Shown here piece after piece: positions 11,340-58,469 of a stretch of DNA of 60,745 nucleotides. Positions within the stretch are counted from its first letter, which is position 1. Every line of letters begins with the position of its first letter. This DNA comes from Nitrospirota bacterium. GTDB lineage: Bacteria; Nitrospirota; Thermodesulfovibrionia; Thermodesulfovibrionales; UBA1546. The translations under genes were made by a program, and so were the position numbers. The notes beneath the pieces were generated by a model. That model saw nothing but the letters and a program-made list of their open reading frames with translations. It was not told the origin of the DNA and ran no database searches. The stretch is from NCBI GenBank assembly GCA_009773185.1, contig WPIF01000017.1, positions 1-60,745 of the forward strand. Reading direction: 5' to 3'.

Positions 11340-11379
11340 AACATCAAAGTGGAAGACCTGACTTGGAATACTCTTTCAA

Positions 11380-16722: not shown

Positions 16723-16736
16723 TGAACAATTATGAT

Positions 16737-16858: not shown

Positions 16859-16896
16859 ATTTCATTTATAACTATAGTGATAGGGAGGGTTAATTT

Positions 16897-28905: not shown

Positions 28906-28982
28906 TGGTCGGGGCGAAAGGATTTGAACCTTCGACCCCACGGTCCCGAACCGTGTGCGCTACCAAACTGCGCTACGCCCCG
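28906..28982 (-). tRNA. tRNA-Pro (anticodon CGG)
   Basis: The reverse complement reads CGGGGCGTAGCGCAGTTTGGTAGCGCACACGGTTCGGGACCGTGGGGTCGAAGGTTCAAATCCTTTCGCCCCGACCA. It has a 7-bp acceptor stem, a D-arm, the anticodon loop TTCGGGA, a T-arm GGTTCAAATCC and an encoded CCA. Confidence 0.85.
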
Positions 28983-40316: not shown

Positions 40317-40421
40317 AAGGCAACAGAAGCCCGCTGAACTCAGGTTTGGCTGTATATGGGAAACCTCTTGCGTAAGTGTTATAGTAAAGATATTATTAAC
40401 ATTCAGGCAAAAGGAGCAATC

Positions 40422-41885
40422 ATGAATATCAAAAAGTATTTGCTCGGTTTGACTTTATGCTTGTTTTTTATGGTTAGCGGCTGCGCTATTGCTCTTGGCC
40501 CTCAAGCAGTTGACCTGAAGGAATCCCAGAGGCCGCCTGTCCTCAGGCTTGAGCAGGTCAGCGAGCAGAAGAGCGGGAGTGGGAGTGAGGAATGGCCGGG
40601 ATTCCGCGACCTTCTGATAAGAGCGCTGAACCAGCCTCCAGCCTCCAGTATCTTCACGAAGGACAGCTCCGGCTTGGCCCTGAAGATTGAGCTCAAATCC
40701 TCCCATGAGAGCGACACGTCCCGGCTCATCGGGCTGGGGCTCCTCAGCATGGGAACACTGGGGATCCTTCCTCTTCATTACCACTCGGACTGGCCGGTCA
40801 AGGGCGATGTCACGATATATTCGGGGGATGGGAAGGTGCAGGGCCAGTACCATGTCCAATCGACGGGAACCTATGACATCCAGGCGTACCCGCTCACGAT
40901 GTTTACCCTGTTCGGGGCAAGCTTTCAGGGGGACGCTGACGCCAAAGAGATACTCCAACGGACGGCCAATGACATCGTATCTCAGATTATGAGGGCGGTT
41001 GATTCCGACTATGAAAAGCTTGCTGTAGTTTATCGTTCCCAGATGCTGGCAAAGGCGGAACAATCGGTGGTGGAAGCGTCATCCAGGGATGAACTGCGCA
41101 TTATAAAATCTGATGTGGACGATATACCTGCGGCAAAAGCAAAGATAAATAGTAATAAATCATATGCCATTGTTATCGGAATCGAACGGTACCGTCAGAA
41201 GCTTCCGAGGGCCGACTTCGCAACGCATGATGCCCAGACAGTGACTGACTATTTAACCAAGGTGCTTGGATATCCCGAAGAAAATGTAATTACATTATTA
41301 AATGATAGGGCTCTAAAAAGTGATTTTGAAAAATATTTTGAGAAGTGGCTTATGAATAATGTAGAGAAGGAAGGCACCGTGTTTGTGTATTACTCAGGCC
41401 ACGGCGCTCCGGACCCCAGGACAGGCAGCGCCTATCTTGTGCCCTATGACGGCGACCCTTCATTTATTGACCAGACAGGGTATTCTTTGAAGAGGATGTA
41501 CGAAGCCCTCGGAAGGCTTCAGGCAAAAGAGATTATCGTTGCGCTTGATTCCTGTTTCTCAGGCGCAGGCGGGAAGTCTGTGCTTGCAAAAGGCGCAAGG
41601 CCTCTGGTTATGAACCTTGAACAGGACATAAAGCTTTCAAAGAACATGACTGTCATGTCTGCCTCGTCAGGCGACCAGATCAGTTCAACCTATGACGAGA
41701 AGGGACATGGCTTATTCACTTACTTCATGCTCAAGGGGATTAAGAACGAAGACGTTGTCAAGCAGGATGGTTCTCTGGATATCAGTGAACTGCATTCCTA
41801 CCTTAAATCCCAGGTGGAGCGCATTGCCAGAAAGCAGTACAATAACGAACAGACTCCGCAGCTGATTGTGCCGAAGAAGAATTAG
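40422..41885 (+). CDS. lipoprotein with C-terminal caspase-like (peptidase C14) domain
   Basis: Lipobox MVSGC. Caspase His 'VYYSGHG' and Cys 'DSCFSGAGG'. C-terminal 'QYNNEQTPQL'. A conserved in-frame leader starts at 40356. Confidence 0.7.
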   Translation: MNIKKYLLGLTLCLFFMVSGCAIALGPQAVDLKESQRPPVLRLEQVSEQKSGSGSEEWPGFRDLLIRALNQPPASSIFTKDSSGLALKIELKSSHESDTSRLIGLGLLSMGTLGILPLHYHSDWPVKGDVTIYSGDGKVQGQYHVQSTGTYDIQAYPLTMFTLFGASFQGDADAKEILQRTANDIVSQIMRAVDSDYEKLAVVYRSQMLAKAEQSVVEASSRDELRIIKSDVDDIPAAKAKINSNKSYAIVIGIERYRQKLPRADFATHDAQTVTDYLTKVLGYPEENVITLLNDRALKSDFEKYFEKWLMNNVEKEGTVFVYYSGHGAPDPRTGSAYLVPYDGDPSFIDQTGYSLKRMYEALGRLQAKEIIVALDSCFSGAGGKSVLAKGARPLVMNLEQDIKLSKNMTVMSASSGDQISSTYDEKGHGLFTYFMLKGIKNEDVVKQDGSLDISELHSYLKSQVERIARKQYNNEQTPQLIVPKKN

Positions 41886-41937
41886 AAATGCGAAGATTAG
41901 AGGAAGAAGGGCGATAGGTTTTTATGAGAGGTGGGTT

Positions 41938-43422
41938 GTGAAAAGGCATAATTTTATTTCTTTAATCAGCATAATCTTTATCCTGCTTGCGGGTATGGCT
42001 ATGGTAGGCTGTGCGACACCGTTAATAAATGCTGTAGAGCGCGGGGATATCGATGAGGTTAAAAAACTGCTCGAAACTGGCGCTGATCCTAATGCATCCG
42101 CGGACATGAGTCCCTTAAATATTGCGGCAAGTCGCGGAGACATTAACATGGTTAGGATTCTGCTCGATAAAGGGGCTAATCTCCATGCCGGGGTTTTCCC
42201 TCCCATTAGGTTTGCAGTAAAGGGAAGCAACTATGAGGTTGTGAAATTACTGTTAGACAAGGGTGCTGACCCAAATAGTTCAGGGACTTTTGGTTGCGGC
42301 TATGAACAGCTTTTAGTAGAAGCTGCGGGAATGATAGGAAAAGGCAGCATTAAAATCGTAGATTTGCTAATTGAGAGAGGTGCCAATTTTGATGTCGCTT
42401 TGTCATACTGTGAACGGCACTCAAGTGATTTCATGTGTGGTTCCAATTATGCTAAATGTTATGCGACATTGAAGCAGATTAAGACGAAACGGGATGAAAT
42501 AGCAAGACAAGAAGAAAAAGAACAGAAACTTACAAAAGCCAAAGAAATAGAAGCGAATAAGGCAAAAGAGATGAAAGAGATAATTAAAGAAGTCGTTGCT
42601 GAAACAGCTAAGACCCAAAAGCAAGCAGCCCGGCCTTCTTCTGTCCAGTCCGACATAGAAAAACCATCGTTTACTCCTGCAGAAAAAATTATCAGCGATA
42701 ACGACCTCGCTGTCATCATTGGCATAGAAGGCTATCAAAGTCTGCCAAAGTCCGATTATTCTTATGACGATGCAAAGCTTGTTAAAGACTATATCAAGGC
42801 TCTTGGTTTTAAAGAAAGGAATATCGAACTTATTACTGATGAAAAGGCAACGCTTTCCAGTATAACCAAAACCCTGGAGGCATGGCTGAAAAACAAGGCA
42901 AAGAATGATAGTAAAGTATTTGTATACTATTCAGGGCATGGCTCGCCTGACCCGGCAACAGGAGAGGCATATCTTGTGCCGTATGACGGAGACCCGAATT
43001 ATCTTGCTGTGACTGGTTATCCTTTAAAGAGGCTCTATGACAACCTCGGCAAGCTGCAAGTCGCTGAGGTTACGGTAGTGCTTGATGCTTGTTTTTCAGG
43101 CGCTGGAGGAAGGAGCGTTCTTGCGCAGGGAGCAAGGCCGTTAGTAATGGTGGCAGATATTAAAACAATTCCATCCAATATGGCTATCCTCTCAGCAACG
43201 CAGGGTTCTCAGATAAGCACATCATCTTCTGAAAAAGGACATGGGGTTTTCACTTATTATTTTTTGAAAGCTTTGAAAGGCGGAAAGAAGACAATCGCAG
43301 AGATTTACGAATATATAAAACCGCTTGTGGAAGATGATGCAAAACAGTTGAATGTCCAGCAGAGCCCGAGCATAAGCCCGGATGTTGAGAAATTGAAGGG
43401 AAGGTTTGAGTTGAGGAAATAA
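41938..43422 (+). CDS. ankyrin-repeat lipoprotein with C-terminal caspase-like domain
   Basis: Probable GTG start (VKRHNFISLIS...MVGC lipobox). Ankyrin repeats ('GADPNAS...LNIAASRGDINMVRILLDKGANLHA'). Caspase dyad 'YYSGHG' / 'DACFSGAGG'. C-terminal 'QQSPSISPDVEKLKGRFELRK'. Confidence 0.7.
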   Translation: MKRHNFISLISIIFILLAGMAMVGCATPLINAVERGDIDEVKKLLETGADPNASADMSPLNIAASRGDINMVRILLDKGANLHAGVFPPIRFAVKGSNYEVVKLLLDKGADPNSSGTFGCGYEQLLVEAAGMIGKGSIKIVDLLIERGANFDVALSYCERHSSDFMCGSNYAKCYATLKQIKTKRDEIARQEEKEQKLTKAKEIEANKAKEMKEIIKEVVAETAKTQKQAARPSSVQSDIEKPSFTPAEKIISDNDLAVIIGIEGYQSLPKSDYSYDDAKLVKDYIKALGFKERNIELITDEKATLSSITKTLEAWLKNKAKNDSKVFVYYSGHGSPDPATGEAYLVPYDGDPNYLAVTGYPLKRLYDNLGKLQVAEVTVVLDACFSGAGGRSVLAQGARPLVMVADIKTIPSNMAILSATQGSQISTSSSEKGHGVFTYYFLKALKGGKKTIAEIYEYIKPLVEDDAKQLNVQQSPSISPDVEKLKGRFELRK

Positions 43423-43427
43423 AACAA

Positions 43428-43922
43428 ATGCTTGATTATCTTGCTATATTCAAAAAATTGAACGAAAAAAAGATTCGGTATCTAGTAGTTGGAGGGATTG
43501 CTGTTAATCTGCATGGTATCCCGAGGATGACGTACGACGTAGACCTGATTCTTGATCTTGAAGATGAAAACATAAAGGAGTTTTTGCAATTATTAAAGGG
43601 ATGGGGATTTAAACCCAAGATTCCTGTGGATATTATGGATTTTGCAAAAAAAGAAATCAGGGAAAGCTGGATAAAAAATAAGAATATGAAGGCATTTAAT
43701 CTTGTAAACACTGAATGGGCAATCTCAGAAATAGATATTGTAATAGATTCACCTGTTGACTATAAGAAGGGGCATAAGAGGATGAAACATATTATGCTTC
43801 ATGATGTTTCTATCCCCGTAATATCCATTGATGACCTTATAAAAATGAAACATATTACAGAGAGGCAGCAGGATGAGGCAGATATAAGATACTTAAGGAA
43901 ACTGAAAAATGCGAAAAAGTAA
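43428..43922 (+). CDS. nucleotidyltransferase-fold protein (MNT-like)
   Basis: 164 aa. 'YLVVGGIAVNLHGIPRMTYDVDLIL' is the minimal-NTase G-x...D-x-D signature. No HepT partner seen. Confidence 0.55.
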   Translation: MLDYLAIFKKLNEKKIRYLVVGGIAVNLHGIPRMTYDVDLILDLEDENIKEFLQLLKGWGFKPKIPVDIMDFAKKEIRESWIKNKNMKAFNLVNTEWAISEIDIVIDSPVDYKKGHKRMKHIMLHDVSIPVISIDDLIKMKHITERQQDEADIRYLRKLKNAKK

Positions 43923-44109
43923 AACACAGGGCTTTGACTACTATTTAAGCAAAGAGGCAATAGAGCGGTATAGGGAGAAGCCCCCTGAACTCAGGCTTAA
44001 ATGGCTGTATATGGGGAACCTCTTGCGTAAGGGGTACAGCAAGGATGTTATTAAGATTCAGGATAAATTCAGGGAAGGGAAGTAAGTAATGATTTCAGGC
44101 GGTGGGGTT

Positions 44110-45543
44110 ATGAAAACGAAGGGTAATTTTATTTCTTTAATCAGCGTAATCTTTCTCCTGCTTGTGGGTATGGCGATGGGAGGGTGCGGGACCGCATTGA
44201 CACAGGCGGCAAAAGAAGGAGACATCTCTGCCCTCCAGAAACTGATTGAGGAAGGTGCAGATATTAATGAAGGCGCTATAGTAGGAGGTAGTATGAATGG
44301 CTCGCTTTTAAGCCAAGCTGCATACTACTGCCGTATTGAGGCGGTAAAGTATTTAATACATAAAGGGGCTGATATAAATAATGCAACAGGTTGGACAGAT
44401 TATGGTGCTAGTGGTGGAGGGTTGAGACCTTTGCATATGGCTGCAAGATCTGGTTGCACAGAGGCAATAAAACTTTTGCTCGATGCAGGCGCTGACATTG
44501 ATGTAAGAGCAAATAAGATGTTCGGGTCTGCTCTGGCAATAGCCGCATATCATGGTAATATTAAGAGCGTAAAATATTTAATTGAAAGAGGGGCTGACGT
44601 TGATGATGCAAGCCAGGTTCTTAAAGGATTGGCAGATGACAAAATGAAAGGGAGAGGTGGTAAAGAAGGCCTGGCATTGCTCCAGAAGTTTGAAAAGCAG
44701 AAAATTGCGATCCGGCTTTCTGAAAATATACCTCCTTCCATTGTTGCCAAATCCGATGTTGACGAACTTCCTGCAATAAAAGCAAAACTAAATAGAAACT
44801 CCTACGCTATCGTTATCGGCATCGAGAGCTACCGCCAGAAGCTTCCAAAGGCTGATTATGCGGTAGCTGATGCAAAGGCAATGACAGAATATCTCACAAA
44901 GGTCATGGGCTATCCGGAGGAAAATGTAATAACACTTATCAATGAGCAGGCGACAAAAAGTGATTTTGAGAAATATATCGAAGAATGGCTGCCGAAGAAC
45001 ATTGAACCAAACAGCTCAGTGTTCATCTACTACTCAGGGCATGGTGCGCCTAATACCAAGACAGGTGATGCGTTCCTGGTTCCTTACGACGGCGACCCTA
45101 ACTTCATAGAAAAAACAGGATATCCGCTTAAAAAACTTTACGACAACCTTTCCAAACTTCAGGCAAAGGGAGTAATCGTTGCACTTGATTCCTGCTTCTC
45201 GGGCGCAGGAGGGCACAGTGTTCTCGCACAGGGAAGCCGTCCTCTGGTCATGAACCTTCAGACAACTCTATCTCCCGCAAAAAATATGATAATCATGGCA
45301 GCATCATCCGGCAGCGAAACAAGCTCGACTTATAACGACAAGGGACATGGCTTGTTTACGTACTTTATGCTTAAAGGCATAAAAGGCGAGGCTGATATGA
45401 ATGAGGACGGCAAAATAGAAATAGAGGAGTTGTACCAGTACATGAAACCCAATGTTCAGAAGATTGCCAGAAGGCTTTATAATAATGAGCAGACGCCTCA
45501 GTTGATAGCGCCCGAGAAACAGAAGATATTCTTAAAGGATTGA
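44110..45543 (+). CDS. ankyrin-repeat lipoprotein with C-terminal caspase-like domain
   Basis: 'MKTKGNFISLISV...MGGC', ankyrin repeats, 'YYSGHG' / 'DSCFSGAGG', C-terminal 'LYNNEQTPQL'. Preceded by a conserved leader / 24-codon uORF (44011-44085). Confidence 0.7.
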   Translation: MKTKGNFISLISVIFLLLVGMAMGGCGTALTQAAKEGDISALQKLIEEGADINEGAIVGGSMNGSLLSQAAYYCRIEAVKYLIHKGADINNATGWTDYGASGGGLRPLHMAARSGCTEAIKLLLDAGADIDVRANKMFGSALAIAAYHGNIKSVKYLIERGADVDDASQVLKGLADDKMKGRGGKEGLALLQKFEKQKIAIRLSENIPPSIVAKSDVDELPAIKAKLNRNSYAIVIGIESYRQKLPKADYAVADAKAMTEYLTKVMGYPEENVITLINEQATKSDFEKYIEEWLPKNIEPNSSVFIYYSGHGAPNTKTGDAFLVPYDGDPNFIEKTGYPLKKLYDNLSKLQAKGVIVALDSCFSGAGGHSVLAQGSRPLVMNLQTTLSPAKNMIIMAASSGSETSSTYNDKGHGLFTYFMLKGIKGEADMNEDGKIEIEELYQYMKPNVQKIARRLYNNEQTPQLIAPEKQKIFLKD

Positions 45544-45630
45544 GATAGCAATAGCTGTACTAATTTAATTAAGATTCTTTTGCTTTGTGATAAAATAGCT
45601 AAAGAATATAAAAAGTTTGGGGGTGAGACG

Positions 45631-45834
45631 ATGAAGACGGTTAAGATTGTTTTGCCGGAGAAACTTGGCATGGAGCTTAAGAATTATGTAAAAAGCGGAT
45701 GGTTTATTGATGAGTCAGAGGTTCTGCGAACTGCTTTGCAGGAATTCATTCGTCATAATCGGCTTAAGTTGATGGAAAAATTTATGAAGGAAGATATTGA
45801 GTGGGCATTAAAAATAAAAGCCGGCGCTAAATGA
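45631..45834 (+). CDS. UPF0175-family small protein (antitoxin-like partner of DUF3368)
   Basis: 67 aa from ATG 45631 (RBS GGGGTGAG). '...SEVLRTALQEFIRH' is UPF0175-like. 4-nt overlap with the downstream PIN gene. Confidence 0.5.
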   Translation: MKTVKIVLPEKLGMELKNYVKSGWFIDESEVLRTALQEFIRHNRLKLMEKFMKEDIEWALKIKAGAK

Positions 45835-46334
45835 GCATTGTTGTTTGTGATACCGGCCCAATTATCCACTTGAAAGAAGCAGGGCTTTTAAAACTTCTCA
45901 AAGAGACCGGCAAAATCTATATACCTCAAATGGTAGAAACCGAACTCAGCGAAATAGACCACCTCTGGAAAAAACAGAGACCGGACTGGATATTAATAGA
46001 AACTCTCTCGTCAAGTGAAATCAAAAAGGCAGAGTCTTTAGTTTTTTCAGGGTTACTGGATTTTGGTGAGGCAGAGGCTATTATTCTGGTCAAAAAACTC
46101 AACCCCAAATGGTTTCTAACTGATGACACAGAGGCAAGAGTTCTGGCTAATTCTTTGGGTATGGAAGTGCATGGTTCTTTAGGAGTAGTATTGTGGTCTG
46201 CTGCAGTCGGTCATTTAAGCTATGCGGAATCGAAGAAAGCGCTCGATAGACTTTCTAAAACATCCCTCTGGATTTCAAAAGATATTTTATTGCAAGCTGA
46301 GGAAGCATTAAAGGCAATGTTTGAGAAGATCTAA
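45831..46334 (+). CDS. DUF3368 PIN-like nuclease domain protein
   Basis: 167 aa. 'IVVCDTGPIIHL' is the DUF3368 N-terminus (PIN Asp). Acidic residues at 'LTDDTEA'. Confidence 0.6.
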   Translation: MSIVVCDTGPIIHLKEAGLLKLLKETGKIYIPQMVETELSEIDHLWKKQRPDWILIETLSSSEIKKAESLVFSGLLDFGEAEAIILVKKLNPKWFLTDDTEARVLANSLGMEVHGSLGVVLWSAAVGHLSYAESKKALDRLSKTSLWISKDILLQAEEALKAMFEKI

Positions 46335-46355
46335 AGTGCGGAAGAGATTATTTGG

Positions 46356-47667
46356 AGGTGGGGTTATGAAAATCAAGGGTAATTTAATTTCTTTAATTAG
46401 CGTGCTCTTTATTCTGTCAACGATTATGGCGATGACAGGTTGTGCGACAACGCCATTAAGGGACGCAGTAGGAAAGGGTGATATTAACACTGTAAAAGAT
46501 ATTCTTGATAAGGGTGGTGATATAAATGAAAAATACTATGGCATACCGCTTTTGCATGTTACGGTTGTTGATCCTATCTGGGGATTAAATACAATTGGAT
46601 GTCGCACTGAGATGGCAAAAGTTCTGCTTGAACGGGGTGCTGATGTAAATGCTAAGGACACTTCGTGGAATGTAGGTCCCTTGGCATTGGCGGCATATGG
46701 GGGATGTAATAGGATAGTAAGCTTCCTGGTTGAAAGAGGGGCTAATGTAGATGAAGCTATATCCCAACTAGAATCTTGGTTTCTTAAAGGGAGTGAGTCC
46801 AAATCTGGCATTAAAATACTTGAGAACACAAAAGTAAAACAAGACAGGGTTAAGCAACCCACTGTAGCCTCTATGCTTTCTCCTACTCTCACATCCGACG
46901 TTGACGAACTTCCTGCAATAAAGGCAAAACCAAATAAAAACTCCTATGCCATTGTAATCGGAATAGAAAACTACCGGCAGAAGCTTCCAAAGGCAGATTA
47001 TGCTGTAGCTGATGCAAAGACTGTAACTGAATATCTCACAAAGGTAATGGGCTATCCGGAAGAAAATGTTGTAACTCTCATGAACGACCGGGCGTCCTTG
47101 ACGGATTTTATAAAATACTTTGAAAAATGGCTTCCGAATAATGTTGAAAAGGACAGCATGGTGTTTGTGTACTACTCAGGACACGGCGCGCCGAATACAA
47201 AGACAGGCGATGCCTATCTTGTGCCTTATGACGGAGACCCGTCATTTATTGAACAGACCGGCTATCCCCTGAAGAAACTCTATGAATTACTTAACAAACT
47301 TCAGGCAAAGGAGATTATCGTTGCGCTTGATTCATGTTTTTCAGGTGCAGGCGGAAAGTCTGTAATAGCAAAAGGCGCGAGGCCGTTGGTTATGAATCTT
47401 GAACAGGATATGAAGGCTTTCGATAAGCTGACAATTTTGTCCGCTGCATCAGGAGACCAGACAAGCTCTACCTATGACGAGAAGGGGCACGGCTTATTCA
47501 CTTACTTCATGCTCAAGGGCATCAAGAACGAGGATGTTACAAGGCAGGATGGCTCGATTAAGATGGATGACCTCTTTAGCTACATTAAACCACAGGTAGA
47601 GCGCATTGCCAGAAAGCAGTACAATAACGAACAAACGCCGCAGTTGTTCGGGGGAAAACATAGGTGA
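46356..47667 (+). CDS. ankyrin-repeat lipoprotein with C-terminal caspase-like domain
   Basis: 'MKIKGNLISLISV...MTGC', ankyrin repeats, 'YYSGHG' / 'DSCFSGAGG', C-terminal 'QYNNEQTPQL'. Confidence 0.7.
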
Positions 47668-48488
47668 GATTTATGAAAAAAATACCTTTAATATTTCTCC
47701 TTCTTGCTCTTCCCTTCGTCTCTCTTGCTGCGGATAAACCCGCCTGGATTGATGCAGACGGAGAGGCAGTTATGGGTGATATCGAGACGCAGAAAGAGGT
47801 CAAGGAGAGGGCAAAGATTGATGCACAGAATAAGGCAGTTGAAAAGGCAGTCGGCGTATTCATAAGGTCTCACACTCTGGTTTCTAACAGCCAGCTTGCA
47901 GAGGACCTTATTTATGCGTCTGTAAGAGGGAAGATAGAGAAGGTTAATATTGTCAAAGAGGGATGGGATGAGAAGGACAGAAATCTTTACAGGGTTAAGA
48001 TTAAAGCCCTTGTTATGCCTGTTTATCCTGAGAAAGGCGAAGGCATATCACTAAAAATACTGCTTTCTAAAACTGTTTTAAAAGAGGGCGATGAGGTAAA
48101 AATATTTTATCAGGCAAGCAATGACTGCTATGTTTATATTTTTTCGGTTGCCGCTGATGGCTCAGTGACATTGCTCCTGCCCAATTCCATGAATCAGGAC
48201 AACCATACAAAAGCCGGCAAGTCATATGAATTCCCTTCGTCTGAAAGCAAAATAAAACTTCAGGCAAGATTTCTTCCGGGTTTTGGCAAAAATGCCGCTG
48301 AGGAAAGGATTAAGATTATAGCAACAAAGCTCAGGGAGGATATAATACCGCTCGGATTTCAGGAAGGAATGTTTAAGGTTTATGATTCCAAATCAACCGG
48401 AATGATAAGCGACCTTGTAAGAAGGCTTAATCAGCTTGAACCTGCTGATTGGGCTGAGGCAACGGTAGTTTATAAATTAAGCAGATAA
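47664..48488 (+). CDS. secreted protein with LPP20-like N-region and DUF4384 domain
   Basis: 274 aa. Signal peptide. 'DEVKIFYQASNDCYVYIFSVAADGSVTLLLPN' matches DUF4384, a domain known to co-occur with caspase domains. ATGA overlap with the upstream caspase gene. Confidence 0.6.
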   Translation: MRFMKKIPLIFLLLALPFVSLAADKPAWIDADGEAVMGDIETQKEVKERAKIDAQNKAVEKAVGVFIRSHTLVSNSQLAEDLIYASVRGKIEKVNIVKEGWDEKDRNLYRVKIKALVMPVYPEKGEGISLKILLSKTVLKEGDEVKIFYQASNDCYVYIFSVAADGSVTLLLPNSMNQDNHTKAGKSYEFPSSESKIKLQARFLPGFGKNAAEERIKIIATKLREDIIPLGFQEGMFKVYDSKSTGMISDLVRRLNQLEPADWAEATVVYKLSR

Positions 48489-48510
48489 ATTAAGGCAATG
48501 CAATACCCAG

Positions 48511-48662
48511 GAGGTAACATTTTTTCGCTCATTCCCGGGCTGAAGCAGCGACTCCTCCGCCCCAGGCGGATTCGCCGAGGCGAAGAGGAATTTTGCCTCT
48601 TCATCCCTTATTATTTTAAGGAATATCGGCAAAATAAAACCGTTCAAAAACATTACCGCCTG
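48511..48662. repeat. MITE-like repeat element copy (divergent)
   Basis: TTTTTCGCTCATTCCCGGG...GGAATTTTGCCTCTTC...ATATCGGCAAAATAAAACCGTTCAAAAACATTACCGCC. Confidence 0.45.
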
Positions 48663-48684
48663 TATTAAAAAAAGGGTGATTAAA

Positions 48685-50325: not shown

Positions 50326-50396
50326 ATAATGAAGAAAGTCAAAATAAAACCGCTCAGATACTATATTCCTTTCTCTGGTTAATTTTTTAAGTAAAC

Positions 50397-51074
50397 ATGG
50401 AAATACTCATATTCCCTAAAATATTCGGCTCTCATGTAACTGCTTTTTTCACCGGCAAATCTCCGGGCGCTGACCTTGACAGGATTTCAAATATCGCCCC
50501 GGTCAGCAAAGAAAAGATTTATCTGCCAATACAAAAACATACGGATAAGGTGCTTTTGCTGAATTCTGATTTTAGCCCAAAGATAGCAGATGCAGTTATA
50601 ACGAAAAATAAAGGCATATTGATAAGCGTTCAGGTTGCAGATTGTGTGCCTGTGCTTCTATGCGATATGAAAAAATCCGTAATCGGCGCAGTCCATGCAG
50701 GCTGGAGGGGCACAGCAGCAGAGATATTGAAGAAAACTATAAATTCGATGTGTGATAAATTCAGTTCTGTACCCGAAGATATTAAGATAGCGATTGGGCT
50801 AAGCATAAGATTGTGCTGTTATCATGTGGGGTATGATGTGCTTGAAGCTGTTATAAAAGCAACCGGCAGCGGTGACTATCATAATCAAAAAACTGATGCA
50901 TACTGTCTTGACCTTGCAGCTGCAAACAAATATCAGGCAATGTCAGCCGGAATACCCGAAAAGAATATATGGATGTCTCAGGAATGCACTTATTGCAACC
51001 CGGACAGGTTCTATTCTTACAGGTATGCAAAAGGTTCTACTGGAAGGCAGTGCGGGTTTATTGGTATCCTTTAA
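50397..51074 (+). CDS. pgeF: peptidoglycan editing factor PgeF (YfiH/DUF152 laccase-domain protein)
   Basis: 225 aa. 'ADCVPVLLCD', 'AVHAGWRG' and 'CTYC' are DUF152 signatures. Confidence 0.75.
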   Translation: MEILIFPKIFGSHVTAFFTGKSPGADLDRISNIAPVSKEKIYLPIQKHTDKVLLLNSDFSPKIADAVITKNKGILISVQVADCVPVLLCDMKKSVIGAVHAGWRGTAAEILKKTINSMCDKFSSVPEDIKIAIGLSIRLCCYHVGYDVLEAVIKATGSGDYHNQKTDAYCLDLAAANKYQAMSAGIPEKNIWMSQECTYCNPDRFYSYRYAKGSTGRQCGFIGIL

Positions 51075-51076
51075 GC

Positions 51077-51516
51077 TAATGAAATTCTTAAGCAGAAGCG
51101 CTGAAGAAACACAGATAATAGGTTTCAGTCTTGGTAAATTGCTTAAAGCACAGGGCGTTGTATGCCTTTACGGCGAACTGGGCGCAGGCAAGACAACATT
51201 TGTTAAGGGAATTGCGCAGGCGTTGGGAATTCCTGAGAGTAATGTCACGAGCGCAAGTTTTACAATAATTGTTGAATATGACAACAAAATCCCTCTCTAT
51301 CACATAGACCTTTACAGGATTGAAAAGGAATCTGATATTGATGGGGCAGGTATCTGGGATTATATTTACAGCGAAGGCATTACTGTTATTGAATGGGCTG
51401 AGCGGCTCGGGAAGGTGCCTGACGATTTTATAAAGGTAAAATTTGCTATTATAGATGAAGTAACAAGGGATATAACAATTGAGGGTATAGATGAAAAAGA
51501 TTGGAATTATATGTAA
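51077..51516 (+). CDS. tsaE: tRNA threonylcarbamoyladenosine biosynthesis protein TsaE
   Basis: 146 aa from ATG 51077. 'LYGELGAGKTTFVKGI' P-loop. The longer ORF from 50872 overlaps pgeF and was rejected. Confidence 0.75.
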
Positions 51517-52342
51517 GTCAGGAAGGCCTGAGCCGCTGGAGATATTGAAAGACCTTCTTCCATGGTTAGGCAAAAAAGGGCTTGAAACATTTTTGGACAT
51601 TGAAACAGCCCCGATGCTCAATGCGAAAGGCTATTCGCGTTCAGAGATTCCAAAGATTGCTGAAGTGATAATTGTTTTGGGTGGTGACGGCACAATGCTC
51701 AATGTTGCCAGGCTTGTCTGTGAAAAAGGCATCCCTATCCTTGGAGTCAATCTGGGAGGTCTCGGGTTTATAACAGAGGTGCAAATAGAAGAACTCCATG
51801 ATGCGATGGAAAAAGTCCTTTCGGGAGAGTGTTCATCTGAAGAACGAATAATGCTCACAGCTTATATCCATAGGCATGGAGAAAGGATAGCGGAATATAC
51901 TGTGCTTAATGATGTTGTAATTAATAAAGGTGCGCTTGCAAGGATTATAGACCTTGAAACTTACATTAATAAGACATATGTAACGACCTTTAAGTCAGAC
52001 GGGCTTATAGTGTCAACACCAACCGGCTCGACAGCATACTCATTGTCAGCAGGAGGGCCTGTTCTGTATCCAACGCTTGACAGTATTGTTGTAACGCCTA
52101 TATGCCCTCATACCCTTACTAACAGGCCTATTGTTCTTCCTGATGATGTCTTGATTGAGATAGTGCTTAAATCCCAGAGCGAGGATGTTTTTCTAACGCT
52201 TGACGGCCAGGTGGGATTTTCTTTGAGGAAGAATGATGTTGTGGAAATTAAAAGGTCACCTTTCAGGACAAAACTCCTCATCCCGTTTGAAAGGGATTTT
52301 TTTCAGGTGCTAAGGACAAAGCTTAAATGGGGAGAGAGGTAG
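51491..52342 (+). CDS. nadK: NAD(+) kinase
   Basis: 283 aa. 'VLGGDGTML', 'NDVVINKG' and 'STPTGSTAYSLSAGGP'. Confidence 0.85.
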   Translation: MKKIGIICKSGRPEPLEILKDLLPWLGKKGLETFLDIETAPMLNAKGYSRSEIPKIAEVIIVLGGDGTMLNVARLVCEKGIPILGVNLGGLGFITEVQIEELHDAMEKVLSGECSSEERIMLTAYIHRHGERIAEYTVLNDVVINKGALARIIDLETYINKTYVTTFKSDGLIVSTPTGSTAYSLSAGGPVLYPTLDSIVVTPICPHTLTNRPIVLPDDVLIEIVLKSQSEDVFLTLDGQVGFSLRKNDVVEIKRSPFRTKLLIPFERDFFQVLRTKLKWGER

Positions 52343-52370
52343 AGAAGTTGTCATCTTACAGATATTAACT

Positions 52371-53177
52371 ATGAGCCAAAAGCAGATGAGCAATATTGCA
52401 GAAGATATAAAAGACATCCTCAGGTTTTATCAGGCGATGGGAATTGAGAGTGTGCCAATAAAGATTGTGCAGAAATACAAAAGTGCGGTCTCCTCGGCGA
52501 CTCGCCTGAGGCGAGAAGCGCGGAAGCCGGATCCCGGAGGGCCGGCAGTGGTTAGTGAAGATATTAAAGCTGACACCTATCACCCAACATCTAAGGCTTC
52601 ACCTGTTGCACGCCTGTCCACGGCTGAAAAGGCTGTTGCACTGAAGGCATTGAGAGAAGAGATTGGCGACTGCACAAGGTGCAAGCTTTCAAAGGGAAGG
52701 ACAAATCTTGTCTTTGGTGAAGGGAATATTGATGCAGAAATAATGTTTATAGGCGAGGGGCCCGGCAAGGAAGAGGACTTGCAGGGAAGGCCATTTGTCG
52801 GAGATGCAGGCCAGTTATTGACAAAGCTCATAGAAAAAATGGGTTTTAAGAGAGAGGCTGTCTATATAGGCAATATAGTGAAATGCAGGCCTCCCTTGAA
52901 CAGGGCTCCTGAAGATGATGAAATTAATTCGTGCGTTTCTTTCATTAAAAGGCAGGCAGAGATAATCTCTCCGAAGGTTATAATTGCGCTGGGCCGCATC
53001 TCTGCGCAGACACTGCTTGCTTCAAAGATTACTATAAGCAGGCTGAGGGGAAGGTTCTACGAATATTGCGGTATACCGCTTATGCCGACATTTCATCCTG
53101 CATATCTTCTGAGGAACCCAAAGGATAAAAGGCTTGTATGGGAAGATGTTCAAAAGGTTTTGGAAAGATTGAAATGA
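52371..53177 (+). CDS. family 4 uracil-DNA glycosylase with N-terminal extension
   Basis: 'CTRCKLSKGRTNLVFGEGN', 'FIGEGPGKEEDLQGRPFVGDAGQLL' and 'FHPAYLLRNP'. About 100 aa of N-extension carries a palindromic 29-nt insert. Confidence 0.75.
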   Translation: MSQKQMSNIAEDIKDILRFYQAMGIESVPIKIVQKYKSAVSSATRLRREARKPDPGGPAVVSEDIKADTYHPTSKASPVARLSTAEKAVALKALREEIGDCTRCKLSKGRTNLVFGEGNIDAEIMFIGEGPGKEEDLQGRPFVGDAGQLLTKLIEKMGFKREAVYIGNIVKCRPPLNRAPEDDEINSCVSFIKRQAEIISPKVIIALGRISAQTLLASKITISRLRGRFYEYCGIPLMPTFHPAYLLRNPKDKRLVWEDVQKVLERLK

Positions 53178-53797
53178 AAAGATTTGTTTTTGCAATCAGC
53201 GGTGCAAGCGGGCCGATTATAGGGATACGAATTCTAAGGGAATTGCTCAAGACCTCTCAGGTTCATCTGATTATATCATCGCAATCATTCTCTATTATAA
53301 AGGAAGAGACAGGGATAGACTGGACAATTAAAAAAGGGTCAAGGGGTCAAAGGGGCAAAGGGTCAAAGTTGACAGAAGATAAGATTAGAAAACATTTTAA
53401 AACAGACAGGCTTTTCTTTCATGAGGATACAGATATGTATGCACCTATTGCCAGTGGTTCATTCAAGACCGATGGAATGCTTGTTGTGCCATGTTCGATG
53501 AAAACGCTTTCCGGCATTGCCAATGGTTATGCGAACAATCTTGTTGAAAGGGCTGCTGATGTAACGATAAAAGAGGGAAGGGCGTTGCTTCTTTCTCCGA
53601 GAGAGATGCCTTTCAGCGCAATTCATCTTGAAAACATGCTCAAGCTTGCCATGATAGGAGTTAAGATTGCGCCTCCAGTGCCTGCGTTTTATCACAAACC
53701 TAGAAATATAGATGACATAGTTGATTTTATGGCGGGAAAGATTCTTGATGCTATGGGCATTGAGCATGAGATTTTTAAGAGATGGGGAGGCAAATGA
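53174..53797 (+). CDS. ubiX: flavin prenyltransferase UbiX
   Basis: 'MKRFVFAISGASGPIIGIRIL' and 'GSFKTDGMLVVPCSMKTLSGIANG'. About 18-aa G-rich insert (KKGSRGQRGKGSK). Confidence 0.8.
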   Translation: MKRFVFAISGASGPIIGIRILRELLKTSQVHLIISSQSFSIIKEETGIDWTIKKGSRGQRGKGSKLTEDKIRKHFKTDRLFFHEDTDMYAPIASGSFKTDGMLVVPCSMKTLSGIANGYANNLVERAADVTIKEGRALLLSPREMPFSAIHLENMLKLAMIGVKIAPPVPAFYHKPRNIDDIVDFMAGKILDAMGIEHEIFKRWGGK

Positions 53798-55266
53798 TTT
53801 TCAGGAGCTGGGGGATGAAAAGATTGGGAATGCTTGTTATATTTTTATTATCATCTTTAACTGTGGGATGTGCAGGACATTATAACGTCCCTATGGTAGA
53901 TGTTACTGCAACCCCGCCTGACCTTGTCCAAAAAATACCATTGAATGTAGCAATTCTTATAACCGACCAGATGGAAAATTATACGTTCACTGGACAAGCA
54001 AACGAATCATCTATTTATGGGACATATACTTTCCCCTTTGGACAGATGATCAGGAAGAATATTTTTGATATTTTATCTCCTGCTTTTAATAAGGCAGTTA
54101 TAGTGAAAGGCAAGCCGTATCCGCAAGACATTGATGTTATTATCGTCGCAAAAGTTGAAAAATTCCAACACTGGTATGTCGGTGCAGGCGCTTTCACAGC
54201 AACGGTTGTTGCAAAAATATCCATTAAACTTGCTGTTTATGATATGAAAGCAGCGCTCGTATGGGAAGGAATAATAAGTTCACCTAAAGTGGAAAAAATA
54301 TACTCCGCACCTGTCACGGGTGATTTTTTGGGAGCGACTGGAAGCGTAGCCGCAGAATCAGTAGTTGCTGCCTTGCAAGAGGCCGCCAAAGTTATAACTT
54401 CTTCACGTGAGATTCATGCTTTTGTTTCTGCAAAAGGAATATCCGAAACTATAGCTTCAAAGCCATCCGGAAAGGAATTGCCCATTGTCAAATCCGATGT
54501 TGATAAGCCTTTTTTTGGTGTAACCGATAAAATAATGGGAGATAATGACATGGCAGTTGTCATAGGTGTTGAGAAATATCAGGATTTGCCTGCTTCAGAT
54601 TATTCTTCCAGCGATGCAAAGCTTATGAAGGAGTATCTTGTATCGTTGGGCGTCAAGGAAAGGAATATAGAACTTCTCCTGAATGAAAGGGCAACGCAGT
54701 CAAGCATAAAGAAAACTGTAGAAACATGGCTTCCAAACAGGGTCAAGAGCGACAGTAAAGTAGTAATCTATTATTCCGGCCATGGAGCGCCTGATGCAAA
54801 AACAGGAAACGCCTACATTGTTCCCTTTGATGGTGACCCCAATTATCTTGAGGATACAGGCTATCCATTGAAAAGGCTTTACGATAAACTCGGCAAGCTT
54901 CAGGTTGCGGAAGTGATTGTTCTCCTTGATTCCTGTTTTTCAGGCGCAGGCGGAAGGAGTGTGCTTGCAAAGGGCGCGAGGCCGCTGGTGATGATGGTGG
55001 ATACCGGGGTTTTATCATCAAACATGGCGGTACTCTCGGCAACGCAGGGGACGCAGATTTCTACTTCTTCTCCTGAAAAAGGGCATGGGGTTTTCACATA
55101 TTATTTTCTTAAGGCGTTAAAAGACGGCAAGAAAGATATTGCAGAGATATACAGTTACATTAAACCATTGGTTGAAGACGAGGCAAAACAAATCAATGTT
55201 CAGCAAAGCCCGAGCGTAAGCCCTGATGTTGAGAAATTGAAAGGAAGATTTGGGTTAAGAAAATGA
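53794..55266 (+). CDS. lipoprotein with C-terminal caspase-like domain
   Basis: Lipobox LTVGC. 'IYYSGHG' / 'DSCFSGAGG'. C-terminal 'QQSPSVSPDVEKLKGRFGLRK'. GGGGAGG RBS. Confidence 0.7.
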   Translation: MIFRSWGMKRLGMLVIFLLSSLTVGCAGHYNVPMVDVTATPPDLVQKIPLNVAILITDQMENYTFTGQANESSIYGTYTFPFGQMIRKNIFDILSPAFNKAVIVKGKPYPQDIDVIIVAKVEKFQHWYVGAGAFTATVVAKISIKLAVYDMKAALVWEGIISSPKVEKIYSAPVTGDFLGATGSVAAESVVAALQEAAKVITSSREIHAFVSAKGISETIASKPSGKELPIVKSDVDKPFFGVTDKIMGDNDMAVVIGVEKYQDLPASDYSSSDAKLMKEYLVSLGVKERNIELLLNERATQSSIKKTVETWLPNRVKSDSKVVIYYSGHGAPDAKTGNAYIVPFDGDPNYLEDTGYPLKRLYDKLGKLQVAEVIVLLDSCFSGAGGRSVLAKGARPLVMMVDTGVLSSNMAVLSATQGTQISTSSPEKGHGVFTYYFLKALKDGKKDIAEIYSYIKPLVEDEAKQINVQQSPSVSPDVEKLKGRFGLRK

Positions 55267-55405
55267 GACTACACAAAAGTGTAAAGCACTACACTAGTGA
55301 GTTTTTAGACAGGCCCTGTGTTCCTCCCTATAGACTGGGGAGAAAAGCTAAAATTATTTCGTTTATGATAGAATTGCTATAATATGTGAGAAAAAGGAGA
55401 GTAGC

Positions 55406-55594
55406 ATGGAAAAAGTCATGGTAAGCACAGATGAATATAATGGCCGTTATGTTGCAATGAAGAGCTTTGATGACCATACCATTGTCGGCGTTGGCAATGA
55501 CCCTGAATCAGCTTTAAAAGATGCAAAATCAAAGGGATACAAAGAGCCTGTTCTTTTGTATATCCCTGAAAAAGAATTAGTTCATATCTACTGA
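55406..55594 (+). CDS. small DUF5678-like protein
   Basis: 62 aa. 'YNGRYVAMKSFDDHTIVGVGNDPESALKDAKSKGYKEPVLLYIP' matches the DUF5678 pattern recalled from memory. Abuts the aspartyl-protease gene. Confidence 0.4.
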   Translation: MEKVMVSTDEYNGRYVAMKSFDDHTIVGVGNDPESALKDAKSKGYKEPVLLYIPEKELVHIY

Positions 55595-56001
55595 TGCCAA
55601 TACGCAATTTCCCTTTTTCAACAATACGAAAAGGCGACCTGCCGAGACCGTATCTCCCTGTTACGATACTAAACCCTGATACAAATAAAAAACTGAAAGT
55701 CTTTGCCCTGATAGACACAGGCGCGGACGAGTGCGCATTCCCTGCTTCTTTTGCGCCAATTCTTGGACACAATCTGCAGGCAGGTCAGCAGAAGAGTATA
55801 AGCACCGGCAATGGGATAACCATTGCCTATAGCCATAAAACCCGCATTGAAATAGCGGGATTTGCAACTCAGGATGTGCTGATAGATTTTATGCCTAACC
55901 TCAATATTCCTTTGCTTGGGGTCAGAAGCTTTTTGAACAATTTTGTTTTGACTGTTGATTATCCGAAGAAGGTATTTTCTTTAAAGCTTTCGAACAAGTA
56001 A
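55594..56001 (+). CDS. retropepsin-like (clan AA) aspartyl protease
   Basis: 135 aa. 'VFALIDTGADECAF' carries the D-T-G-A catalytic motif. Confidence 0.6.
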   Translation: MPIRNFPFSTIRKGDLPRPYLPVTILNPDTNKKLKVFALIDTGADECAFPASFAPILGHNLQAGQQKSISTGNGITIAYSHKTRIEIAGFATQDVLIDFMPNLNIPLLGVRSFLNNFVLTVDYPKKVFSLKLSNK

Positions 56002-56106
56002 CTTTTTAAATAAGTTTTGCAGGAGGTGGGGGATGAAAAGGATATTAAATAAATATGGGATGTGTCCCTCTATATTCTCATTGAGGAATTTCCTGCAGGA
56101 GAAAGC

Positions 56107-58407
56107 ATGAAACGGGGATTATTAATCATAACGCTCTTTTTCTCCCTATGGTCGTTGGCAGGGTGCGCGACAGCGGTCATGCCCAACGTCGTTAGGTATT
56201 GCGAAAAAAATACGTGCGATACAATCAAAGAGGAAAGTCCAAAACAGGAAATCCTTGTAAAAATGTACAAGCTCATCAAGAAAAATCTTGGTAAGAGCTT
56301 TCCGATATATGAGACCTCGCCCGGCAAGATATTGAATGTCTCCGAAAAAGATTCCTACTTAGACAAGGGTTTTTCGTTTTACACCCAGGGCGGGCCTATG
56401 CCCGGAGTCTCAACGATTAAATCCATAAAATTTAACGATATCCTTTACATTGACCGCGAAAATATGGAAATCAAGCTTAATGTTTCCATGCGCTTTAATT
56501 GGAATCTCACGCCTGTCTTAGTTGTTCCGGCGGAGGGGATATTGTCGATAAAGTCAGCCAGGGAGGTCAGACTTGAGAGTACGCATTTGGCCTCATGGAT
56601 GGTGGTTGGGACAGGTATTTGGCATAGTGAATGGCTTATAGACTATATTGATTTTGATCGGATGATTATAGCCGGATCTTATGCAATGAGTGGGGCGGGT
56701 CCCTTATCTATCGGCGGCGGCAGCGGTTACATCCAGGTTACCATGGGCCGGATAGTGCCTGACGATGTTGAAGCTACTGAGGTTGACGAGGGTACTGTTC
56801 CAGAGGAAAAAGATAAGAAGCCGGCTGCCGTCCTTCCGCCATTTCTGGCGTTCAATGCAGTTTTCCACGACAGCTCGGGCGACGGCATCCTTGAGGGTGG
56901 CAAGGAGGTTTCTCTGCGGGTGGAGGTGGAAAACCGCGGGGAAGGACCGGCAAATGATGTTCAGGTTCTCCTTTCCGGGCATGATGACATTATCAGCTAT
57001 CTGGGAGAAAAACGTACTCTCGGAGATATCAAGGCGGGAGAAAAGAGAACAGCCGAATTTAAAGCAACGCTGCCCTTGCAGATCGCGGCGGATGCCGGGA
57101 ACCTCCGAATAAATGTTCAGGAAAAGCGGGGATTCTCTCCTGCCGAGGCAAAGGTTTTAAAAATTGCAGTCAAGCCGGGTACCGTCAGGGAAAAAGTGGA
57201 GGTAATATCTGCAGTTCCTAAAATGATTTTTTTTGCCTCGCTGAAGGATCAGAATAACAATCGTGTATTGGACGGCGGCGAGGAAATATCGCTTCAAGTA
57301 GAAATTGAAAACAAAGGCGAAGGACTCGCCAGGGATGTGCATGTTGTTTTGTCGGGACATCCTACCCTCATCCATACCCTCGGCGCTTCCAAGTCAATCG
57401 GCGACCTGCAAACTGGAGAAAAAAAGGTGGCTGTTTTTAAAGGTATCCTGCCTGAACATATCGCATCGGAATCTGCCACACTTCGTATTGAAATCAGGGA
57501 AGGCAGGGGTTTTTCACCCACGGAGCGCAGAGTCCTTCAGGTGGCAATGAGAACTGCCGAGGTAAAGGAAGTCATTGAAGTGGTTTCCGAAGTGGATGTG
57601 GATGATATTCCCTCAAGAATAAGAGGTTTTGAAAAGAAAGAGGATTTTGCTCTGCTGTTTGGTATCAGCACCTATCGGGAAAAAAGCATTCCCGAAGTGA
57701 AATACGCGTCCAGGGATGCGGAAGTCATGGCGAAATATCTTGAGCATTTATCCGGAATTCCCCGATCCAATATTATGGTGTTGACGAATGACAAGGTTAC
57801 AAAGAGTGATCTGGAGGCGTACATAGAGGATTGGCTGCCTCGGAGGGTCACGAAGAATTCCAGGGTTTTTGTTTATTATGCTGGCCATGGTGCGCCTGAT
57901 CCGCAAGGCAAGGATGCCTATATTGTTCCCTTTGACGGGAATCCGGATTTTCCATCCAAGCTGTATCCATTGAACCGCATGTACGATACACTGAACAAGC
58001 TTCCCAACAGGGAAATTGTTGTCATGCTTGACAGCTGTTTTTCAGGGGCTAAAGGTAGAAGTGTAGCCAGTGAAGGGGCAAGACCGCTCGTGATGTCGGT
58101 TGAGAGTCAATCTCTGGCAGTGGGAAAAGTGACTGTTGTTGCGGCTTCAACAGGCAGCCAGATCAGTTCCGATTATGACAAAGTTCGTCACGGTTTATTT
58201 ACGTATTATCTTCTGCGGGGGCTCAGAGGGGATGCGGACATTGAAAAACAAGGTGTTGTCGATCTGGGATCGCTATACCAGTATGTCAGTACCAAGGTAT
58301 CGGAGAAAGCCTCTCTGGAGTTTAACCGTGATCAGACTCCCGTTCTCCTTCAGTCGGCAGCGCTGGCCGCAGAGAGAACGAAAATGCCAGTAGCAAGGAC
58401 ACGTTGA
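56107..58407 (+). CDS. lipoprotein with CARDB-like repeats and C-terminal caspase-like domain
   Basis: Lipobox SLAGC. Two repeats of '...LEGG(K/E)E(V/I)SL(R/Q)VE(V/I)EN(R/K)GEG(P/L)A(N/R)DV(Q/H)V(L/V)LSGH...'. 'VYYAGHG' / 'DSCFSGAKG'. Confidence 0.7.
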   Translation: MKRGLLIITLFFSLWSLAGCATAVMPNVVRYCEKNTCDTIKEESPKQEILVKMYKLIKKNLGKSFPIYETSPGKILNVSEKDSYLDKGFSFYTQGGPMPGVSTIKSIKFNDILYIDRENMEIKLNVSMRFNWNLTPVLVVPAEGILSIKSAREVRLESTHLASWMVVGTGIWHSEWLIDYIDFDRMIIAGSYAMSGAGPLSIGGGSGYIQVTMGRIVPDDVEATEVDEGTVPEEKDKKPAAVLPPFLAFNAVFHDSSGDGILEGGKEVSLRVEVENRGEGPANDVQVLLSGHDDIISYLGEKRTLGDIKAGEKRTAEFKATLPLQIAADAGNLRINVQEKRGFSPAEAKVLKIAVKPGTVREKVEVISAVPKMIFFASLKDQNNNRVLDGGEEISLQVEIENKGEGLARDVHVVLSGHPTLIHTLGASKSIGDLQTGEKKVAVFKGILPEHIASESATLRIEIREGRGFSPTERRVLQVAMRTAEVKEVIEVVSEVDVDDIPSRIRGFEKKEDFALLFGISTYREKSIPEVKYASRDAEVMAKYLEHLSGIPRSNIMVLTNDKVTKSDLEAYIEDWLPRRVTKNSRVFVYYAGHGAPDPQGKDAYIVPFDGNPDFPSKLYPLNRMYDTLNKLPNREIVVMLDSCFSGAKGRSVASEGARPLVMSVESQSLAVGKVTVVAASTGSQISSDYDKVRHGLFTYYLLRGLRGDADIEKQGVVDLGSLYQYVSTKVSEKASLEFNRDQTPVLLQSAALAAERTKMPVARTR

Positions 58408-58424
58408 TGAAGAGATAGCATAGT

Positions 58425-58469
58425 CCTGACGTTGAGAAGCTGAAAGGAAGGTTTAGTTTAAGGAAATGA
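58425..58469 (+). pseudogene. 45-nt relic of a caspase-paralog C-terminus ([14 protein letters not shown])
   Basis: In frame it reads [14 protein letters not shown]-stop. This is near-identical at nucleotide level to the 3' ends of the 41938 and 53794 genes. The glgB ATG overlaps its stop. Confidence 0.5.

Follow-up and report, generated by a model that had tools for sequence, protein, structure and literature searches.

A 60.7-kb stretch of DNA from a metagenome-assembled Nitrospirota genome of Thermodesulfovibrionales type (the window, by which we mean the whole stretch analysed) contains six genes, all on the + strand between 40422 and 58407, that each encode a protein with a C-terminal caspase-type protease domain (Peptidase_C14) behind an N-terminal lipoprotein signal pattern. 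We favour, at a probability of roughly 60%, the reading that this locus is a modular cell-envelope protease system, made up of caspase lipoproteins with swappable N-terminal modules and a secreted partner protein that carries a DUF4384 domain. A tblastn search of the 60.7-kb window found no seventh caspase copy, leaving exactly six, which we call A to F in gene order. An earlier, sequence-only reading of this stretch had proposed an array of paralogous, exported and catalytically intact caspase-fold proteases that is something other than a single housekeeping peptidase; our analysis supports both points, with export as a prediction.

The catalytic domains place all six proteins firmly in family C14. 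Against the Pfam model Peptidase_C14 (PF00656) they score 56.7–73.3 bits, well above the gathering cut-off of 21.4 (E values from 3.7e-15 to 3e-20), and they have the caspase/hemoglobinase fold that characterises the family. All six paralogues, and 124 of 124 full-length domains from 81 related loci, keep the His and Cys of the catalytic dyad unchanged, together with two acidic S1-pocket Asp residues, one in helix 1 and the other located two positions N-terminal to the catalytic Cys. A profile of E homologues matches yeast Yca1 (E 7e-6) with the catalytic His aligned; a direct search of E against the PDB gave only marginal matches to MALT1 (E 0.18), in which YYSGHG and LDSC of E align with the His415 and Cys464 motifs. 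The dyad that had been described as intact therefore lines up with the catalytic residues of characterised C14 enzymes, and because these residues are invariant, the idea that the proteins are pseudo-proteases was rejected. The invariant Asp pair corresponds, by alignment, to Asp95/Asp211 of TbMCA2 and Asp365/Asp462 of MALT1. Residues of the TbMCA2 Asp95/Asp211 type render the S1 pocket acidic (PMC4357240), and all characterised non-caspase C14 enzymes are Arg/Lys-specific (PMC5756287); from this combination, the window caspases are expected to cleave after Arg or Lys. In addition, an invariant GG(R/K)SV-x-A-x-G-x-RPLVM loop follows the catalytic Cys; this candidate processing site is poorly ordered in the structure model (residues 382–404). 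Overall, the six proteins most closely resemble metacaspases and orthocaspases in sequence, fold and pocket.

Upstream of this constant domain, each protein follows the same order: lipobox, variable module, low-complexity linker, conserved motif and caspase domain. Each N-terminus has a charged region, then a hydrophobic core, then a lipobox Cys within about 40 residues, in a PROSITE PS51257-like pattern with Ala or Gly at position +2. The lipoprotein signal had been claimed for all six, and the pattern is present in six of six; the lipobox Cys is also invariant in 20 E homologues that are 44–94% identical. Export of the six proteins is thus well supported as a prediction from the lipobox pattern. 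They would leave the cytoplasm through Sec, be processed by signal peptidase II and be tethered by the N-terminal Cys, probably to the periplasmic face of the outer membrane because the +2 residue is Ala or Gly. The conserved motif, (K/R)SD(V/I)D(E/D)(L/I)P, lies ~17 residues before the first caspase strand. The window proteins have their C14 domain at the C-terminus, as do nearly all of the top 150 family representatives. Two C-terminal subtypes had been recognised from the sequence, and this division holds (subtype I in A, C and D, loosely joined by F, versus subtype II in B and E). Both subtypes can carry ankyrin modules (II in B, I in C and D), and the N-terminal domain of E is found, in homologues, fused to either one; the N-terminal modules are indeed exchangeable.

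The individual proteins illustrate this modularity. Caspase lipoprotein A (40422..41885, +; lipobox MVSGC) has an orphan N-terminal domain of ~200 aa, the linker motif KSDVDDIP and a subtype I C14 domain (Pfam E 3.7e-15) that is 77% identical to the caspase domain of D. Its N-terminal domain had one database match only, a fragment, and a profile could not be built; in Pfam, neither this domain nor the N-terminal domain of E has a match. B (41938..43422, +; GTG start; lipobox AMVGC) joins ankyrin repeats (Ank_2, E 9e-27) to a subtype II C14 domain (E 1e-19), and is 65% identical to E over 313 aa and 75% over the ~247-aa caspase domain. C (44110..45543, +; lipobox AMGGC) and D (46366..47667, +; lipobox AMTGC) both combine ankyrin repeats (Ank, E 2e-22 in C) with subtype I C14 domains (E 2e-18 and 6.6e-16, respectively) and are 52% identical over their full lengths. 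E (53815..55266, +; lipobox LTVGC) carries an N-terminal lipoprotein domain that resembles outer-membrane lipoprotein folds (LptE/PelC/PqiC-like), followed by a subtype II C14 domain. F (56107..58407, +; lipobox SLAGC) has a ~215-aa domain, two CARDB/Ig (immunoglobulin)-like repeats (CARDB, E 6.9e-9 in two stretches) and a divergent C14 domain (E 3e-20), and is 39–45% identical to the other five. Pfam thus agrees with the six C14 proteins, the three ankyrin fusions and the CARDB-like repeats that had been read from the sequence, and two gene starts needed correction. For D, position 46356 had been given but is not in frame, and the gene begins at an ATG at 46366; for E, 53815 is the most likely start instead of 53794, as in an identical 483-aa database protein and in 19 of 20 homologues. 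Neither sequence nor fold supports the NCBI name of that database protein, 'polysaccharide deacetylase', which seems to be an annotation error that has spread between records.

The stop codon of D overlaps the start of the gene for the secreted partner (47673..48488, +; overlap at 47664/47667). This 271-aa protein has a signal of the signal peptidase I type (VSLA/AD), an N-terminal alpha/beta domain with a weak FlgT_N match (E 0.029), a PVYPEKGxG linker that is invariant, and a DUF4384 beta-sandwich (PF14326; 75.3 bits versus a cut-off of 27, E 4e-21). Across the partner family, a lipobox is present in 0 of 115 members. When all open reading frames (ORFs) of the 81 related, caspase-anchored loci were clustered, only two gene families recurred, the caspase lipoproteins and the DUF4384 protein. 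A full-length partner homologue is present in 29 of the 81, usually on the same strand as a preceding caspase gene and at a distance of −4 to +65 nt from it. Sampling anchored on the partner instead, in five long contigs, found an adjacent caspase gene in every one, directly 5′ in four and ~0.5 kb downstream in the fifth (L082). Partner identity is 68–85% across Nitrospirota and Desulfobacterota, far greater than that of the caspase N-terminal modules. In the literature, DUF4384 is described fused to orthocaspases and other protease domains, and as the C-terminal domain in a subgroup of Csx30, the substrate of the caspase-like Csx29. On the grounds of recurrence, adjacency, conservation and this published link between DUF4384 and proteases, we treat the caspase lipoproteins and the DUF4384 protein as a functional unit. 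The sequence-only reading had listed a secreted DUF4384 protein as one of several interleaved genes; its presence is confirmed, but its status is different, as it is the one conserved partner of the family. We infer that it functions with the caspases as substrate, regulator or scaffold.

This conserved pairing bears on what the proteases might be for. Other exported clan CD enzymes, such as the gingipains, raise the prospect of degradative surface proteases that scavenge nutrients, with several paralogues widening the substrate range. Export, the predicted Arg/Lys specificity and the number of paralogues would suit such a role, and the CARDB/Ig-like repeats and ankyrin modules could bind polymers or proteins. 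However, a lipid anchor with Ala or Gly at +2 suggests a periplasm-facing site and not release, a tightly conserved dedicated partner would be unexpected for bulk proteolysis, and there are no co-located peptide or amino-acid uptake genes; we regard scavenging as improbable.

A CsgG-like gene lies upstream in three of the five partner-anchored loci; two of these also have an SLH-domain gene, two a FlgT_N- or FlgO-like gene, and two a GNA1162-like (GNA1162-like/TPR) gene downstream. The cultured Dissulfurispira thermophila (AP022873.1, 963–984 kb) and two other genomes carry the module flanked by envelope genes on both sides, with CsgG-like, FlgT_N- or FlgO-like and SLH-domain genes on one and a GNA1162-like/TPR gene on the other. 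In locus L086, one 785-aa protein (3320–5677) has a Ctp-type S41 serine protease with PDZ domains fused to a C14 caspase domain; its gene stands directly upstream of ankyrin-caspase and DUF4384 genes and beside a CsgG-like gene. The CsgG, SLH and GNA1162 neighbours and the S41 fusion fit an extracytoplasmic, outer-membrane-associated role, without defining it. SLH-domain and CsgG-like neighbours, seen in two to three genomes, could also be accommodated if the enzymes were transpeptidases, sortase-like or like the glycosylphosphatidylinositol (GPI) transamidase, with a role in attaching or processing proteins of the surface layer or outer membrane; the DUF4384 protein would then be the acceptor or cargo. 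This is very improbable: ORF clustering of the 81 loci found no family with sorting signals beside the arrays, sequence and fold are nearest to hydrolytic metacaspases and the paracaspase, and the likeness to transpeptidases is purely one of analogy.

The array is interrupted by other genes, and its association with toxin-antitoxin-like genes was one of the grounds given for the earlier suggestion of a protease-based conflict, programmed-cell-death or surface-remodelling system. Between B and C lies a DUF6036/AbiEii-like nucleotidyltransferase gene (43428..43922, +; Pfam DUF6036, E 2.9e-6; AbiEii, E 7.9e-5), probably an inserted cassette of toxin-antitoxin (TA) type; relatives have other cassettes at this position. 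Between C and D is a two-gene cassette (45580..46334, +) with a ribbon-helix-helix (RHH)/ParD-like ORF (45580–45834) and a DUF3368 protein (45831–46334; Pfam E 2.3e-6), the latter also matching the PADLOC candidate PDC-S70 (E 1.3e-28). Between E and F, a second two-gene cassette (55406..56001, +) encodes a DUF5678 protein (55406–55594) and a retropepsin-like aspartyl protease (55594–56001; Pfam E 4e-8 and 2e-7, respectively). The earlier description of the nucleotidyltransferase, DUF3368, DUF4384, DUF5678 and retropepsin-like genes thus largely holds, but the UPF0175 family assigned to 45580–45834 was not found there, where we obtained only a weak ParD/RHH-type match (E 1e-3).

In a conflict system acting in anti-phage defence, abortive infection or the killing of kin or competitors, diversified sensor or targeting modules would trigger or direct a caspase-like executioner and the TA cassettes would be its partners. 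Several observations are in keeping with this: copy number and N-terminal modules vary between strains whose orthologues are ~94% identical, TA cassettes lie in or next to the arrays of the window, of its closest relative and of all five partner-anchored loci (two of which also have transposase or integrase genes), the DUF3368 protein matches PDC-S70, and caspase-like proteases are active in several known defence systems. However, known defence caspases are cytoplasmic and the window proteases are predicted to be exported lipoproteins, no STAND/NACHT, SAVED, CRISPR, gasdermin or EACC1 partner is present, and the catalytic domains are strongly conserved together with a conserved partner that is not defence-like. 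Searches with PADLOC-DB v2 profiles, in which the system logic was not run, gave no defined system, only partial matches to a generic 'caspase' model (positions 2–182 of 453) and to ankyrin models. Among NCBIfam models, that for EACC1-associated caspases (NF047832) scores highest against all six proteins (E 1e-20 to 1e-26), but at 71–92 bits all six miss its cut-off of 140. Nor did ORF clustering of the 81 loci reveal any recurring NTPase, sensor or effector gene beside the arrays.

The TA genes themselves provide an internal control. Far from the array, among housekeeping genes, the window has HicA/HicB (923–1368) and Phd/ParE (10772–11339) pairs and a third pair (27193–27847, −), made up of a TumE gene (27563–27847) and an adjacent winged helix-turn-helix gene of the HVO_A0114 type (27193–27573); the genome is generally TA-rich. 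The rest of the window thus has TA pairs that are just as dispersed, and homologous sites in the closest relative hold cassettes of other types. In other genomes, 40 of 52 adjacent caspase gene pairs have nothing inserted between them, and most arrays lack inserted genes. The association with TA-like genes, which had been taken as a sign of function, therefore looks incidental, and TA cassettes as components of the system were ruled out by this control and the gap analysis. We conclude that the TA-like cassettes, together with the housekeeping block described below, are passengers in a recombination-prone region. More generally, the result cautions against taking interleaved TA genes in TA-rich genomes as evidence of defence. 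We found nothing that links the array to phage defence or programmed cell death; on this evidence a conflict system is unlikely, though less so than nutrient scavenging, and we continue to prefer a modular cell-envelope protease system.

To place the array in its family, we used a caspase-domain profile, which matches at least 7,070 clusters (50% identity) at E ≤ 1e-30, nearly all of which end in this domain. When one genome per species was scanned, at least 522 stretches that encode it came to light, all metagenome-assembled, in more than 500 species-level genomes from Nitrospirota, Desulfobacterota (Syntrophales, Geobacter, Desulfobacterales), Elusimicrobiota and Nitrospinota. Tandem arrays of two to six are common in Nitrospirota and Desulfobacterota, and a set of six is found in the Nitrospirae genome MYbin3 as well. 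Each of A to D is closer to a homologue in another genome than to any paralogue in the window; the closest relatives of E are in the sister strain described next, and F matches nothing sampled above ~51%. Because A–D are closer to foreign homologues, and because arrays occur in at least two phyla, the paralogues are old and expansion is a trait of the family. A lineage-specific expansion, which the sequence-only reading had left as a question, was ruled out on the same two grounds.

The syntenic locus of the closest relative, the sister strain L001, shows how such arrays change over shorter times. Its orthologues are about 94–98% identical (95% for the caspase domain of D), and it shares a backbone of the flanking gene u1, caspase A, ankyrin-caspase D, the DUF4384 gene, nnr through ubiX, caspase E and glgB. 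It has four caspases and lacks B and C along with their cassettes; where the window has the DUF5678/retropepsin pair and F, L001 has an ankyrin-caspase gene, and its TA genes are different. At 9965–13218 of this locus, the caspase domains of the E orthologue and of the adjoining ankyrin-caspase are each ~98% identical to that of window E, and their N-terminal modules are unrelated. Such near-identity despite unrelated N-termini indicates recent gene conversion between neighbouring paralogues in L001.

Comparison with described systems clarifies what is and is not new. Metacaspases and bacterial orthocaspases (MEROPS C14B), including yeast Yca1, Arabidopsis MC4 and MC9 and Microcystis MaOC1, are the nearest characterised relatives. 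In described orthocaspases the p20 domain is N-terminal, accessory domains are C-terminal and the proteins are treated as cytoplasmic; in contrast, the window proteins are predicted exported lipoproteins with a C-terminal protease behind variable modules, lie in tandem arrays and have a secreted DUF4384 partner. They also depart from cyanobacterial orthocaspases, which are defined by an N-terminal p20 and no export signal, in having a C-terminal C14 domain and a lipobox. MALT1, a signalling protease of the eukaryotic cytoplasm, has death and Ig domains, and its sequence similarity to the window proteins is marginal (E 0.18, as above). The survey of Asplund-Samuelsson et al. (2012; PMC3501461) identified 46 bacterial metacaspases that have one helix at the N-terminus, possibly a signal peptide, and proposed an extracellular location; lipoprotein anchoring, tandem arrays or a DUF4384 partner are not described there, and ankyrin is not mentioned. 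The pair Csx29 (TPR-CHAT) and Csx30 of type III-E CRISPR systems offers a likeness, in that a caspase-fold protease acts on a separate protein that can carry DUF4384. However, Csx29 is cytoplasmic, RNA-activated and of the CHAT family, and the window has no CRISPR, RpoE or Csx31; this is an analogy and not membership. EACC1-associated caspases belong to intracellular, NTP-dependent conflict systems, whereas the window has no EACC1 effector or NTPase nearby. The resemblance of accessory domains to PqiC/DUF330, PelC, CsgG, LptE and FlgT/FlgO is structural only and implies no transport or flagellar function. We found no description in the literature of lipoprotein anchoring, ankyrin fusions, arrays or a DUF4384 partner gene for such caspases. 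It is these four features that appear to be new; exported prokaryotic metacaspases were already noted in the 2012 survey.

These results can be combined into a working model of a modular cell-envelope protease system. In it, the variable N-terminal module of each of the six tethered lipoproteins would determine where or on what the enzyme acts: three have ankyrin repeats, one has an LptE/PelC-like domain, another an orphan domain, and the last the ~215-aa domain with two CARDB repeats. The constant metacaspase-like domain at the C-terminus would cut after Arg or Lys, and the putatively co-transcribed FlgT_N-like/DUF4384 protein would be the shared partner as substrate, regulator or scaffold. 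Several points weigh against this interpretation. The lipobox call is a pattern match alone, and about one-third to one-half of the family has no detectable lipobox (the pattern is present in 77 of 115 close and 74 of 141 diverse members), which may reflect wrong gene starts or real differences. Among the more distant members, from Nitrospira and Elusimicrobiota, no partner gene lies within 10 kb. A conflict system would also show the high turnover that is seen between close strains, and this large family is as yet without experimental work on any member.

The remainder of the window is ordinary chromosome, and the array lies at one end of it within a co-directional block, all on the + strand, from 39.6 to 60.7 kb. 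The flanking gene u1 (39660..40316, +) is directly 5′ of the first caspase gene, as it is in the closest relative; the window copy has no Pfam match, and the L001 orthologue is recorded as DUF7986. As had been read from the sequence, the array wraps around a housekeeping block of nnr, pgeF, tsaE, nadK, udg and ubiX (48676..53797, +), borne out by Pfam matches to YjeF_N/Carb_kinase, PgeF, TsaE, NAD kinase, UDG and a UbiX-type flavoprotein. This block is also at the L001 locus and is missing from other caspase arrays; it is interposed and outside the caspase system. Divergent from the array are genes for a sigma-54-dependent response regulator and a HAMP histidine kinase (36722–39559, −). Sigma-54 control of the array was considered and dropped, as a promoter search gave 34 matches versus 34.7 expected, which is no signal. 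Sigma-70 promoter-like matches in the array are also at the level of chance (41 versus 35.4 expected), and terminator-like sites are modestly more frequent than in shuffled sequences (24 versus 16.6, standard deviation 4.2), with no interpretable pattern. An Rfam scan of the whole window found only a tRNA (28909–28982). Further away, at 2336–10706 and 16378–20986, are a complex-I-like or membrane-bound hydrogenase-type module with antiporter-like and 49/30/20-kDa subunits and the hydrogenase maturation genes hypA, hypB, hypF and hypD, ordinary energy metabolism for the lineage.

Repeats within and around the array may record some of its rearrangements. A 66-nt direct repeat, 85% identical, occupies the 5′ leaders of A (40347–40412) and C (44002–44067). 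Upstream of C it is part of the 3′ end (43938..44085, +; ending in RLKWLYMGNLLRKGYSKDVIKIQDKFREGK and a stop codon) of a small ORF that follows the nucleotidyltransferase gene; upstream of A the copy is frame-broken. This repeat is probably a cassette remnant or recombination scar. Similarly, the region of the ribosome-binding site and start of E (53798–53822) is repeated at 92% identity upstream of F (56016–56109), where it opens a 25-codon upstream ORF (encoding MKRILNKYGMCPSIFSLRNFLQEKA and a stop) whose TGA overlaps the ATG of F; this could be a remnant or a coupling upstream ORF. Both the A/C and the E/F leader repeats look like recombination scars. A different element is a perfect 29-nt inverted repeat, TCTCGCCTCAGGCGAGTCGCCGAGGAGAC, with an internal hairpin, found inside nnr (49931–49959) and udg (52488–52516). 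Compared with the L001 orthologues, both sites coincide with in-frame insertions, of 9 aa (VSSATRLRR) in UDG and of a longer variable segment in Nnr. This pattern points to a short palindromic element capable of inserting into coding regions.

The literature almost always treats caspase homologues from bacteria as cytoplasmic proteases of cell death or immunity, whereas the family described here is predicted to be lipid-anchored outside the cytoplasm. A more specific and tentative proposal, which we hold to be possible but doubtful, is that the caspase lipoproteins and the DUF4384 protein together form a proteolytic switch in the periplasm that is so far undescribed and is widespread in Nitrospirota and Desulfobacterota at least. 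In such a switch, the modules would target sites in the envelope and the DUF4384 protein would be a dedicated substrate or regulator, possibly cut at its invariant linker, between PVYPEK and G (PVYPEK|G), by analogy with Csx29 and Csx30. If the pairing is functional, it would offer a two-protein assay for extracytoplasmic metacaspases and a role for the orphan domain DUF4384, and D. thermophila, being in culture and carrying the module, is an experimental entry point. If the proposal is true, caspase-type regulated proteolysis would work outside the bacterial cytoplasm.

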